NCBI RefSeq assembly: GCF_054482525.1
Contig: NZ_CM137006.1
DNA length: 64,000 bases
Strand: one strand, 5' to 3'
Position 1 is the first letter of the stretch, and each line of letters begins with the position of its first letter. The position numbers were made by a program, and so were the translations under genes. Shown one piece after another: positions 58,319 through 62,433 of this stretch. A model generated the notes under the pieces. It was not told the origin of the DNA, ran no database searches, and was given only the letters and a program-made list of their open reading frames with translations.

Positions 58319-58978
58319 TTACAGCGGGCTTAAGGTAATTTCTACACGGCGGTTTTGCGCCTTACCTTCTGCGGTGCTGTTGCTGGCGATTGGGTTAGCC
58401 GGGCCAAGGCCCTGAGTACGGATGCGGCTGGCGTCCACGCCCTGGGTGATCAACGCGCTGGCAACGGAATCCGCACGCTGCTGGGAGAGACGCATGTTCA
58501 GGTCGTGACCACCCGTGCTGTCGGTATAACCAATCACGTTAACCGCCGTTTTCGGATACTCTTTCAGCACCATTGCCACGCCGGTTAGGGTGTTAGCGCC
58601 TGCCGGTTTCAGGGTCGCGCTGCTGCTGTCGAAGGTCACATTGTTCGGCATATTGAGGATAATGTTATCCCCGCTGCGGGTTACGCTAACACCAGTGCCA
58701 CGCATTTTGTCACGCAGCTTCGCTTCCTGCACATCCATGTAATAACCAACGCCGCCGCCCAGAGCTGCACCCGCTGCTGCGCCAATCAGCGCGCCTTTAC
58801 CGCGATCTTTCTTCGAAGAAGAGAGCGCACCAATACCCGCGCCAACGAGAGAGCCCAGACCTGCGCCGATAGCAGATTTACCTGCTTCGCGTTCGCCGGT
58901 GTAAGGGTTAGTTGTGCAGCCAGATACCGCCAGAGCGCCACTCACTACGGCGGCAATAAGATAAACACGTTTCTTCAT
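58319..58978 (-). CDS. yiaD: OmpA-family outer-membrane lipoprotein
   Basis: 219-aa ORF with lipoprotein signal (ALAVSGCTT), Gly-rich segment and C-terminal OmpA-like peptidoglycan-binding domain. Confidence 0.92.
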   Translation of the reverse strand: MKKRVYLIAAVVSGALAVSGCTTNPYTGEREAGKSAIGAGLGSLVGAGIGALSSSKKDRGKGALIGAAAGAALGGGVGYYMDVQEAKLRDKMRGTGVSVTRSGDNIILNMPNNVTFDSSSATLKPAGANTLTGVAMVLKEYPKTAVNVIGYTDSTGGHDLNMRLSQQRADSVASALITQGVDASRIRTQGLGPANPIASNSTAEGKAQNRRVEITLSPL

Positions 58979-59130
58979 TGTTAATCCTTAATAACCTTTT
59001 TATTCTTTGCCACGGGTTCCGTGGCGGGAGATTATGCCGCGTGAACATGAAGATTATTCCTGGGAATACTCGGAAATTTGTAAGTAATATTTAACTGCTC
59101 AATACATCTAACCTTTCAGGAGCCTTCGGT

Positions 59131-61464
59131 TTGGCCAACTCATCCTCACGATATTCCGTTCTGACTGCCGCCCACTGGGGGCCCATGCTGGTTGAAACCG
59201 ACGGCGAAACCGTGCTTAGCTCGCGTGGCGCGTTAGCCACAGGAATGGAAAACTCCTTGCAGAGTGCGGTTCGCGACCAGGTTCACAGCAATACGCGGGT
59301 ACGATTTCCAATGGTGCGCAAAGGCTTTCTTGCGTCACCGGAAAACCCGCAAGGCATTCGCGGGCAGGATGAATTTGTTCGTGTGAGTTGGGATGAGGCG
59401 CTGGAGCTTATTCACCAACAACATAAACGTATTCGTGAGGCTTATGGTCCGGCATCGATTTTTGCTGGTTCCTACGGCTGGCGTTCAAACGGCGTGCTGC
59501 ATAAGGCCTCGACATTATTACAACGCTATATGGCGCTTGCAGGCGGTTATACCGGGCATCTGGGGGATTATTCGACCGGTGCAGCACAGGCGATCATGCC
59601 GTATGTCGTGGGGGGCAGCGAAGTTTATCAACAGCAAACCAGTTGGCCGTTGGTGCTGGAACATAGCGATGTCGTGGTGCTGTGGAGTGCTAACCCACTC
59701 AATACGCTGAAAATTGCGTGGAATGCATCCGATGAGCAGGGGCTTTCTTACTATTCTGCACTGCGTGACAGTGGGAAAAAGCTGATCTGTATTGATCCAA
59801 TGCGATCGGAAACCGTCGATTTCTTTGGCAATAAAATGGAGTGGGTGGCACCGCACATGGGCACCGATGTTGCGCTGATGTTGGGGATCGCCCATACGCT
59901 GGTGGAAAATGGCTGGCACGACGAAGCGTTTCTGGCACGTTGCACCACAGGTTATGCCGTCTTCGCCTCTTATTTGCTGGGCGAGAGCGACGGAATAGCG
60001 AAAACCGCCGAATGGGCGGCAGAGATTTGTGGGGTTAACGCAGAGAAAATCCGCGAACTGGCGGCTATTTTCCACCAAAACACCACCATGCTGATGGCTG
60101 GCTGGGGAATGCAGCGCCAACAGTTTGGTGAACAAAAACACTGGATGATCGTCACGTTGGCGGCAATGTTGGGGCAAATCGGCACACCCGGCGGCGGTTT
60201 TGGTCTTTCTTACCATTTTGCCAATGGTGGTAACCCCACGCGCCGCGCTGCGGTGCTCTCTTCCATGCAGGGCAGCTTGCCGGGTGGCTGCGATGCGGTA
60301 GATAAAATCCCTGTTGCCCGCATTGTTGAAGCACTGGAAAACCCTGGTGGCGCATATCAACATAACGGTATGGACCGACATTTCCCGGATATTCGTTTTA
60401 TCTGGTGGGCGGGCGGTGCCAACTTTACTCATCATCAGGATACCAATCGCCTGATCCGTGCCTGGCAAAAACCTGAACTGGTGGTTATCTCTGAATGTTT
60501 CTGGACGGCGGCGGCGAAACACGCGGATATCGTTCTGCCTGCGACCACCTCGTTTGAGCGTAATGATCTCACCATGACCGGCGATTACAGTAATCAGCAT
60601 CTGGTGCCGATGAAGCAAGTGGTGCCTCCATGTTATGAAGCGCGTAATGATTTTGATGTCTTTGCCGAGTTGAGTGAACGTTGGGAGAAGGGCGGCTATG
60701 CGCGGTTTACGGAAGGAAAAAGTGAGCTGCAATGGCTGGAAACGTTTTATAACGTTGCCCGGCAGCGCGGGGCAAGCCAGCAGGTTGAATTGCCGCCATT
60801 TGCTGAGTTCTGGGAAGCCAACCAGTTAATTGAGATGCCGGAAAACCCGGACAGCGAGCGGTTTATTCGCTTCGCCGATTTTCGCCGCGATCCGCAGGCG
60901 CATCCATTAAAAACTGCCAGTGGTAAGATTGAAATCTTCTCGCAGCGTATTGCTGATTACGCTTATCCGGATTGCCCTGGGCATCCAATATGGCTGGAGC
61001 CGGACGAATGGCTGGGCAATGCCGAACCGGAACAGTTGCAGGTACTTTCTGCTCATCCGGCACATCGTCTGCACAGCCAGCTGAATTACAGTTCTCTGCG
61101 CGAATTGTACGCGGTGGCAAACCGTGAGCCTGTCACCATTCATCCTGACGATGCTCAGGCGCGCGGCATACAAGATGGCGATACTGTTCGGCTGTGGAAC
61201 GCACGCGGGCAAATTCTTGCCGGAGCGGTCATTAGCGAGGGAATTAAACCTGGCGTGATTTGCATTCACGAAGGCGCATGGCCGGATCTGGATTTAACCG
61301 CTGACGGTATTTGTAAAAACGGCGCGGTGAATGTATTGACTAAAGACCTCCCCAGCTCGCGGCTGGGGAATGGTTGTGCAGGCAACACGGCTTTGGCATG
61401 GCTGGAAAAATACAACGGTCCGGAACTGACACTTACAGCGTTTGAACCACCGGCCAGCTCATAA
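59131..61464 (+). CDS. bisC: Biotin sulfoxide reductase (molybdopterin oxidoreductase)
   Basis: 777-aa frame, [25 protein letters not shown]...; first codon at 59131 is TTG; molybdopterin-binding family sequence throughout. Confidence 0.9.
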
Positions 61465-61873
61465 TCCAGGTGGGTAGTTGGGTTTCATCCTGCCATGCGC
61501 AGTCGACAATGTGAAAACCCTGCGCATGGTAAAAATCTATCGCCGGTTGATTTTTTTGATAAACCTCCAGCATCAGATGGGGATGGCGCTGCTGCACATA
61601 CTGCATCAGCGCCTTACCAATACCGCGTCTGACGGCCTTCGGTGCGACAAACATTGCAGCCAGAAATCGGCCTTCCATAATGCTGACAAAACCGAGAAGC
61701 TTACCGTCTTCTTCCCAGACCCAGTTTTGCGCGTTGGCAAGATAGGCATCCCGCACCAGCGGAATGCAATCACGCCAGTAATTCGCTTTTATAAAGGGAT
61801 GCCCCCAGGTTGTACTTTCCAGCCACAGTTCGAGGATCGCGGGGAGTTCTGAACGTTGCGCTTCCCGAATCAT
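61433..61873 (-). CDS. yiaC: GNAT-family N-acetyltransferase
   Basis: 146-aa ORF with GNAT motif ([12 protein letters not shown]); 3' end overlaps the bisC 3' end by 32 bp (convergent). Confidence 0.9.
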
Positions 61874-62433
61874 GGTTTATTTCCCGGATAGCAACAGCAG
61901 CCAACCACATGATCATTTACCAGCCCACATGCCTGCATAAAGGAGTAACAGATTGTGGTACCGACAAACTTAAAACCACGCTTTTTCAGGGCTTTAGATA
62001 GAGCGTCGGAGGCGGGCGTAGATGTGGGGATTTCGCTCAATGTTGTGGCTTGTGTCACCTGTGGCTGATGATTTACGAACGACCAAACAAAGTCGGCAAA
62101 CGGTTCGCCGTTCCGTTCCATTTGCAGGTACGCCCGCGCATTACCAATAATTGCCTGAATTTTCCCGCGATGGCGGATAATCCCGGCGTCCTGTACCAGT
62201 CTTTCAACATCCTCTTCCTGCATTGCAGCCACCTTCACCGGATCGAACTGATGAAAGCTGGCGCGATAGTTTTCACGTTTTTTGAGGACGGTGATCCACG
62301 ATAATCCAGCCTGCTGCCCTTCAAGGCAGATCATTTCGAACAGTTTTTTACTGTCAGTTTCAGGCACGCCCCATTCATTATCATGGTAGGCAATATAAAG
62401 CGGGTCCTGACTCACCCAGCCGCAACGTTCCAT
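61870..62433 (-). CDS. tag: 3-methyladenine DNA glycosylase I
   Basis: Translation from ATG at 62433 (MERCGWVSQDPLYIAYHDNEWGVP...) gives 187 aa; ORF track extends 79 codons upstream. Confidence 0.93.
   Translation of the reverse strand: MERCGWVSQDPLYIAYHDNEWGVPETDSKKLFEMICLEGQQAGLSWITVLKKRENYRASFHQFDPVKVAAMQEEDVERLVQDAGIIRHRGKIQAIIGNARAYLQMERNGEPFADFVWSFVNHQPQVTQATTLSEIPTSTPASDALSKALKKRGFKFVGTTICYSFMQACGLVNDHVVGCCCYPGNKP

Follow-up and report, generated by a model that had tools for sequence, protein, structure and literature searches.

Where does translation of bisC begin, and does the meeting of its 3' end with the neighbouring gene yiaC have consequences for either gene? Both questions arise from a window of 64,000 nucleotides (contig NZ_CM137006.1 of RefSeq assembly GCF_054482525.1; the window is the whole stretch of DNA analysed, and coordinates refer to it), in which the long bisC reading frame opens with a TTG codon and shares its last bases with the convergent yiaC. 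An earlier note, made from the sequence alone, had considered the true start ambiguous and had proposed that the shared 3' end could cause transcriptional interference or antisense pairing. Our reading, to which we give a probability of roughly 0.9, is that these features are the normal, already annotated structure of the Escherichia coli bisC-yiaC locus. Both the TTG start and the overlap are already known from the reference annotations (RefSeq, K-12), and the gene pair is included in a published excludon catalogue.

Identity and gene content of the locus

In a search of complete E. coli genomes, the stretch 58900-62000 matched strains SCU-102, 19KM1776, and PCN033 at 100% identity, and 5419 of 5426 genomes carried the greater part of the query region. 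The RefSeq annotation of SCU-102 gives the gene order yiaD (-), bisC (+), yiaC (-), tag (-), and yhjY (+), with boundaries of bisC, yiaC, tag, and yiaD that match the open reading frames of the window exactly. The bisC coding sequence (59131..61464, + strand) comprises 777 codons and a TAA stop (61462-61464); its predicted product is a reductase of biotin sulfoxide and free Met-S-sulfoxide, belonging to the Mo-bisMGD DMSO reductases. Facing it on the - strand is yiaC (61433..61873), encoding a GNAT N-acetyltransferase of 146 aa and ending in a TAA stop at 61433-61435. Upstream of yiaC lies tag (61870..62433, - strand; 3-methyladenine DNA glycosylase I according to the ORF list, Pfam, and RefSeq), whose stop codon overlaps the yiaC start as ATGA (61870-61873).

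The locus of K-12 MG1655 is alike in all these respects. Its bisC (b3551, NP_418007.3) is likewise 2334 nt long with TTG at the annotated start, and shares 32 bp with yiaC (b3550) at 3714061..3714092; amino acid identity to the proteins of the window is 97.8% for BisC and 98.6% for YiaC, the neighbours yiaD, tag, and yhjY are common to both loci, and the differences are strain-level substitutions only. The gene names used in the earlier note are thus confirmed, both by the SCU-102 annotation at 100% identity and by K-12 b3551/b3550.

Profile searches assigned both proteins to their families. BisC scored 1099.9 bits against TIGR00509 (bisC_fam, cutoff 1017.55), its residues 13-775 corresponding to positions 1-768 of the 772 in the profile. 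Its Pfam domains, all above the gathering scores, followed in the order Molybdopterin_N (PF18364, residues 12-52, spanning the whole 41-position profile), Molybdopterin (PF00384, 56-517), and Molydop_binding (PF01568, 636-741). YiaC reached 268.4 bits against the equivalog model NF007853 (cutoff 125; residues 1-145 matching positions 1-145 of 146) and matched Acetyltransf_1 over residues 12-120. Given the orthology with the K-12 gene, evident from protein identity and from the common yiaD-bisC-yiaC-tag context, we infer that BisC has biotin sulfoxide and free Met-S-sulfoxide reductase activity.

A 404-aa open reading frame antisense to bisC (59518..60732) was also considered as a gene and rejected: it is a shadow frame in register with the bisC codons, and only 7 of the 69 intact bisC orthologs described below keep the interval open.

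Signals and conservation at the bisC start

As the earlier note had described, TTG (59131..59133, + strand) opens the bisC frame and the first in-frame ATG (59185..59187, +) follows 18 codons downstream, as codon 19; both the ORF list and direct reading of the sequence bear this out. The second in-frame ATG, at 59245, is codon 39. Upstream, the frame is closed by an in-frame TAA (59092..59094, +) 13 codons before the TTG, and the interval between them holds no in-frame ATG, GTG, or TTG, which makes the TTG the first start-type codon after the stop. The sequence AGGAG (59118..59122, +), 8 nt before the TTG, forms a Shine-Dalgarno (SD) element. In these respects bisC resembles other UUG-initiated E. 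coli genes: it has a canonical alternative start codon and a strong SD at normal spacing, and from the preceding stop to the conserved core of the protein nothing else offers a start codon. RNA around the TTG folded at -7.3 kcal/mol, less strongly than its shuffled counterparts (mean -10.6; z = +1.37). Further upstream, a promoter-like site (TTGCCA-17-GATTAT, 59007..59035, +) matches the consensus at 9 of 12 positions, a consensus match only; since promoter-like sites occur in the region at chance level (5 found versus 4.0 expected), we claim no promoter here.

To place these signals in a comparative frame, we drew on one scan of species-representative genomes, which yielded 80 loci, most of them with the yiaD-bisC-yiaC-tag order. 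The 69 intact orthologs analysed (75-98% amino acid identity) span about 20 genera of Enterobacteriaceae, including Escherichia, Citrobacter, Salmonella, Enterobacter, Klebsiella, Raoultella, Kluyvera, Kosakonia, Lelliottia, Leclercia, and Shimwellia. The start codon is TTG in 65 of them and GTG in the remaining 4, never ATG. It sits 11-14 codons before an invariant HWG, and GGAG is found 6-10 nt upstream of it in 69/69 orthologs, the (C)AGGAG block appearing as a conserved column of the alignment. Residues 2-9 vary in sequence and length, and TAAHWGP is invariant. The first six residues of this segment (TAAHWG, codons 12-17, 59164..59181, +) form an N-terminal family motif upstream of codon 19 that is seen in the orthologs, in Pfam, and in TIGR00509.

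Family profiles and solved structures also extend into this region. The Molybdopterin_N profile begins at BisC residue 12 and TIGR00509 at residue 13, and solved homolog structures align from residues 7-10 onwards. In the mature R. sphaeroides DMSO reductase chain 1eu1, residue 8 pairs with BisC residue 10, and the TAAHWG segment aligns with residues 8-15. At the other end, BisC residue 775 pairs with residue 778 of 780, at most 2 residues from the DMSO reductase end. Fold and domain order are shared with the periplasmic enzymes TorA, TorZ/MtsZ, and DorA (PDB 7l5i, 1eu1, 1dms) over BisC residues 7-775, with a best E-value of 3.6e-279 against the solved homologs, and the N- and C-termini of BisC fall at the same places as those of the mature Tor/Dor enzymes.

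Within the Tor/Dor branch of molybdenum S-/N-oxide reductases, BisC is the cytoplasmic enzyme. Unlike its Tor/Dor paralogs, it starts with TTG and has no twin-arginine signal, for which the in-frame TAA 13 codons before the TTG, with no start codon in between, leaves no room. Paralogs with 66% identity in Citrobacter and Entomohabitans have an ATG start and a twin-arginine signal of the form M(K/N)LTRRDFIK...AWA, and their mature domain starts some 11 residues ahead of the R/HWG motif. Since this mature part, ...GGA(V/I)LTAARWG, aligns with the BisC N-terminus, BisC is the signal-less version, starting at the point where the mature domain does.

Taken together, the SD and frame signals, the family profiles, the solved homologs, and the 69 orthologs favour the TTG, and translation of bisC very probably starts at 59131. 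The ambiguity expressed in the earlier note is real for one sequence in isolation, but does not persist once the SD, profiles, structures, and orthologs are compared.

Downstream start codons

A start at ATG19 (59185) would give a protein of 759 aa and make the TTG extension an annotation artefact. ATG is the preferred start codon of E. coli (83% of genes; 10.1101/063800), and the G-rich stretch upstream of codon 19 pairs in silico with the anti-SD at -8.4 kcal/mol, as against -6.6 kcal/mol for the SD of the TTG. This G-run, however, which encodes the conserved Trp-Gly-Pro, leaves a gap of only 2-3 nt to the ATG, and the RNA there is more structured, with a local fold of -16.9 kcal/mol compared with -7.3 at the TTG. 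The codon itself lies 4 codons beyond the conserved HWG, and Citrobacter, Salmonella arizonae, Shimwellia, and others have ATT, ATA, or GTC (Ile/Val) in its place. Initiation at this point would moreover delete the invariant TAAHWG, a segment that the Pfam and TIGR profiles include and that belongs to the solved fold. In the 69 orthologs, the frame stays uninterrupted over the 18 upstream codons, with a conserved SD and TTG/GTG at their head. We regard this start as extremely improbable, and read codon 19 as an internal Met.

Both codons might instead be used in E. coli, so that the full-length enzyme made from the TTG is accompanied by a minor form, shortened at its N-terminus, made from ATG19. 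Other E. coli genes have documented internal starts in frame (10.1101/520783), and the SD-like G-run before ATG19 is consistent with such dual initiation. Yet ATG19 is not conserved outside some genera, and its product, being without HWG, would be without part of domain I. We find dual initiation highly unlikely.

ATG39 (59245) and GTG28 were rejected as starts, both having a poor SD (-3.4 and -2.1 kcal/mol, respectively) and structured RNA, and neither being conserved. Met39 was presumably the start used in earlier K-12 annotation versions (739 aa), before the frame was lengthened to begin at the TTG. As to direct data on the BisC N-terminus, the supplements of TRAINSPOTTER and INRI-seq contained no entry for bisC, b3551, or P20099, and a literature search on the bisC start codon returned nothing relevant.

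Conservation of a weak start codon

Among E. coli genes, about 3% open with UUG; codons of the AUG/GUG/UUG group support initiation at 10-100% of the level seen with AUG (10.1101/063800). Set against other UUG-initiated E. coli genes, bisC has kept UUG or GUG over about 20 genera and never AUG. At position 1 of the start codon, T is conserved in 94% of the 69 orthologs, though A or G would also work. For comparison, we took from the same alignment 145 fourfold-degenerate sites at which the amino acid is invariant. The median major-allele frequency at these sites was 65%; all four bases were seen at 119 of the 145, and only 3.4% reached a frequency of 92%. The comparison is a fair one, because the phylogeny is common to both kinds of site, and it places the bisC start codon among positions more conserved than neutral sites in the same gene. 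It is suggestive only of selection maintaining the weak TTG start, concerning as it does one site in phylogenetically related sequences with an empirical rank of about 3%. A selected weak start would fit with keeping BisC translation modest. At the level of transcripts, bisC rises 2-9-fold upon exposure to H2O2 or HOCl (PMC12096835).

Extent and conservation of the 3' overlap

The convergent overlap of bisC and yiaC covers 61433..61464 on both strands. That the two genes share their final 32 bp, as the earlier note stated, follows from the ORF list and sequence reading, and the K-12 and RefSeq coordinates agree. On the + strand these bases encode the last 10 bisC codons and the stop; on the - strand they encode 2 nt of Ile137, the last 9 complete yiaC codons, and the stop. 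The sequence TWIMSW, probably the final beta-strand of the GNAT fold, falls partly within the yiaC portion. Convergent overlaps of coding sequences are a known minority class in E. coli, with 75 among the 663 overlapping pairs of a reference genome (PMC4161906), and bisC-yiaC is one of them.

We surveyed 72 loci of other Enterobacteriaceae in which both genes are present. The coding sequences overlap in 71 of the 72, by 23 bp (7 loci), 32 bp (33 loci), or 38 bp (31 loci), always 2 mod 3; the sole locus without such an overlap has a broken frame. This survey, together with the 5419 E. coli genomes that carry most of the query region, shows that the arrangement did not arise by chance in a single strain. 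The locus is the ordinary ortholog of bisC-yiaC in K-12.

Across the loci bisC stops at a constant position, and it is the yiaC stop alone that moves. Because only the yiaC stop varies among genera, and because BisC ends where its homologs end, the most likely origin of the overlap is a lengthened yiaC or a lost spacer. In the phase observed, third codon positions of bisC face second positions of yiaC, which explains why the DNA they share is so strongly conserved, and we infer that the overlap is now held by constraint on both protein tails.

Transcription across the overlap

No intergenic DNA separates the two genes, so both transcripts have to finish within the partner gene, and the 32-bp overlap of coding sequences forces full-length mRNAs to overlap as in a convergent excludon. 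The same geometry bears on the refuting condition named in the earlier note, transcripts that terminate before the overlap. This condition does not apply to functional mRNAs: with each stop codon lying inside the other gene, a full protein needs a transcript that runs past the overlap. The proposal of interference or antisense pairing is reasonable: full-length mRNAs of the two genes necessarily share at least 32 nt of complementary sequence, and yiaC-bisC is listed as a convergent excludon (PMC12288877). We found no evidence of a regulatory consequence. The listing comes from the ExcludonFinder RNA-seq survey of 2025, in which the pair is one of 165 convergent excludons detected in at least 50% of 58 MG1655 transcriptomes; the survey reports no functional test for this pair (PMC12288877). 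A Term-seq literature search returned reviews only.

Hairpins were sought as candidate 3' ends of the two transcripts. On the - strand, a GC-rich hairpin of 9 bp (61348..61370, about -15.7 kcal/mol), recovered as a terminator-like hit and in the folds, is a candidate 3' end or terminator of tag-yiaC. It lies 63 nt past the yiaC stop, antisense to the bisC codons for LPSSRLGN. Across 68 orthologs, 89% of alignment cells at its stem positions can pair and some double changes fall at synonymous sites; its covariation is modest, with a score that none of 500 shuffles reached but with 19 sequences unpaired at the covarying pair. On the + strand, the folds gave a perfect 10-bp inverted repeat, CCATGCGCAG...CTGCGCATGG (61493..61529), as a candidate structure of the bisC 3' UTR. 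This repeat begins 29 nt past the bisC stop, inside yiaC, and is followed by a run of seven T (61551-61557). Its cells pair in 84.6% of cases in the 68 orthologs, and its covariation was no better than that of shuffles (89 of 500 reached it).

At the level of the region, the terminator scan gave 7 terminator-like sites versus 5.6 expected by chance, none of them on the + strand after bisC, and folding of both 3' regions was unremarkable relative to shuffles (z = -1.3 and -1.0). Both hairpins sit in conserved coding sequence and are themselves largely conserved; a terminator role for either would be a candidate function, as yet unproven.

Could the overlap nevertheless be a functional excludon, in which convergent transcription or RNase III cleavage makes tag-yiaC and bisC mutually antagonistic? 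The bisC-yiaC pair is like the classical excludons in that the genes are arranged tail to tail and their transcripts must overlap; it is unlike them in that a reciprocal expression effect was demonstrated there and none has been for this pair. Conservation of the overlap in 71 of the 72 surveyed loci, recurrence of the pair in the MG1655 transcriptomes, and the hairpins in each partner's coding region just past each stop are what such a function would lead one to expect. Double coding constraint on two protein tails, however, explains the conservation equally well; listing is near-automatic for overlapping coding sequences and does not demonstrate reciprocal expression; the hairpins covary weakly or not at all; and most of the 75 convergent overlaps and 165 convergent excludons of E. 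coli are without known function. We therefore consider a functional excludon unlikely. Somewhat more doubtful still is a broader proposal, in which the UUG start caps BisC synthesis and the ancient tail overlap with its embedded hairpins forms a conserved excludon, setting expression of BisC, an enzyme that repairs oxidative damage, inversely to that of the tag-yiaC operon. Our default view is that the overlap is a tolerated, doubly constrained arrangement for which a regulatory effect is plausible at most.

Discussion

These findings suggest a simple account of the locus as ordinarily annotated. The UUG at 59131 would be read as Met by the initiator tRNA, positioned by the AGGAG 8 nt upstream, and would yield the 777-aa BisC with its N-terminus where the mature, signal-cleaved periplasmic paralogs begin. 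As UUG is a canonical but weaker start, the translation rate would be modest, and the persistence of UUG across genera suggests that the weak start may be maintained. At the other end of the gene, the tail of yiaC runs 32 bp into the end of bisC, yiaC most likely having been extended or a spacer lost. Whenever both genes are expressed, at least 32 nt of their mRNAs are complementary, because the transcripts end inside each other's gene.

In practical terms, cloning or tagging BisC from Met19 or Met39 would remove conserved residues 12-18 or 12-38, which fall in the family profiles and align with solved homolog structures. The comparative analysis provides a justification, drawn from sequence, of the annotated start, with little import beyond annotation hygiene, and the overlap is shown to be old. 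If the start or the overlap does prove regulatory, either would be a small addition to the control of BisC, an enzyme of methionine and biotin sulfoxide repair.

Conservation of the bisC start codon

Among 69 intact bisC orthologs from about 20 genera (loci L003–L081 in a scan of species-representative genomes), the start codon corresponding to positions 59131–59133 was TTG in 65 cases, GTG in the remaining four, and ATG in none. Its first base was 94% conserved, a level that 96.6% of fourfold-degenerate sites within bisC do not attain. This pattern hints at the maintenance of a weak start. The bisC reading frame was broken in L068 (Leclercia adecarboxylata NCTC13032) and L082 (Citrobacter amalonaticus AUH_CA_2023_1), with yiaC and tag also affected in the latter; these interruptions could reflect either pseudogenisation or indel errors from long-read assemblies.

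A second BisC-like gene, 66% identical and located in another genomic context, was found in Citrobacter, Trabulsiella, and Entomohabitans (loci L069–L074, L076–L078, and L080). The two loci translated, L069 and L078, encode an ATG start followed by a twin-arginine signal; the gene is a periplasmic paralog. In Citrobacter sp. MGH106 and Trabulsiella guamensis it occurs alongside bisC itself.

A 404-aa antisense open reading frame lies inside bisC (59518–60732, minus strand). It is a codon-aligned shadow frame of bisC, whose stops correspond to TTA, CTA, and TCA, all of them rare as sense codons, and it was rejected as a gene because the interval was open in only 7/69 orthologs.

Inverted repeats downstream of yiaC and bisC

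On the minus strand, a GC-rich 9-bp hairpin (61348–61370), located 63 nt beyond the yiaC stop and antisense to the bisC codons for LPSSRLGN, may act as a terminator of tag-yiaC. Its stem shows compensatory synonymous changes (CTC/GGG to CTG/GGC) in some genera but is disrupted in Klebsiella and Raoultella. On the plus strand, a perfect 10-bp inverted repeat (61493–61529) occurs 29 nt beyond the bisC stop, within yiaC (codons HAQ...CAW), with a run of seven T residues on its 3' side (61551–61557). This repeat was kept in most genera, but its covariation across 68 orthologs was no higher than in shuffles.

Upstream elements and gene order

Alignment of the orthologs revealed a conserved block in the yiaD-bisC intergenic region (ACTCnGAAATTTGTAAGTAAyATTnAAC, 59066–59094), confined to loci with yiaD as the neighbour. 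A second, separate block, CACCTGCA, immediately precedes the bisC Shine–Dalgarno sequence in most genera and is absent from Escherichia and Citrobacter. Both are possible promoter or operator elements.

At the other end of the locus, the tag stop and yiaC start overlap co-directionally by 4 nt (ATGA, 61870–61873, minus strand), the usual type of overlap, linked to translational coupling, and the tag-yiaC adjacency was kept across the other genera. In Kosakonia, Phytobacter, Trabulsiella, and some others (L017–L020, L022, L024, L027, L028, L034, L043, L045, and L061), bisC lacks yiaD as its upstream neighbour but keeps the Shine–Dalgarno sequence, the TTG start, and the bisC-yiaC-tag arrangement. 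What is conserved as a unit is thus bisC-yiaC-tag, not yiaD-bisC.
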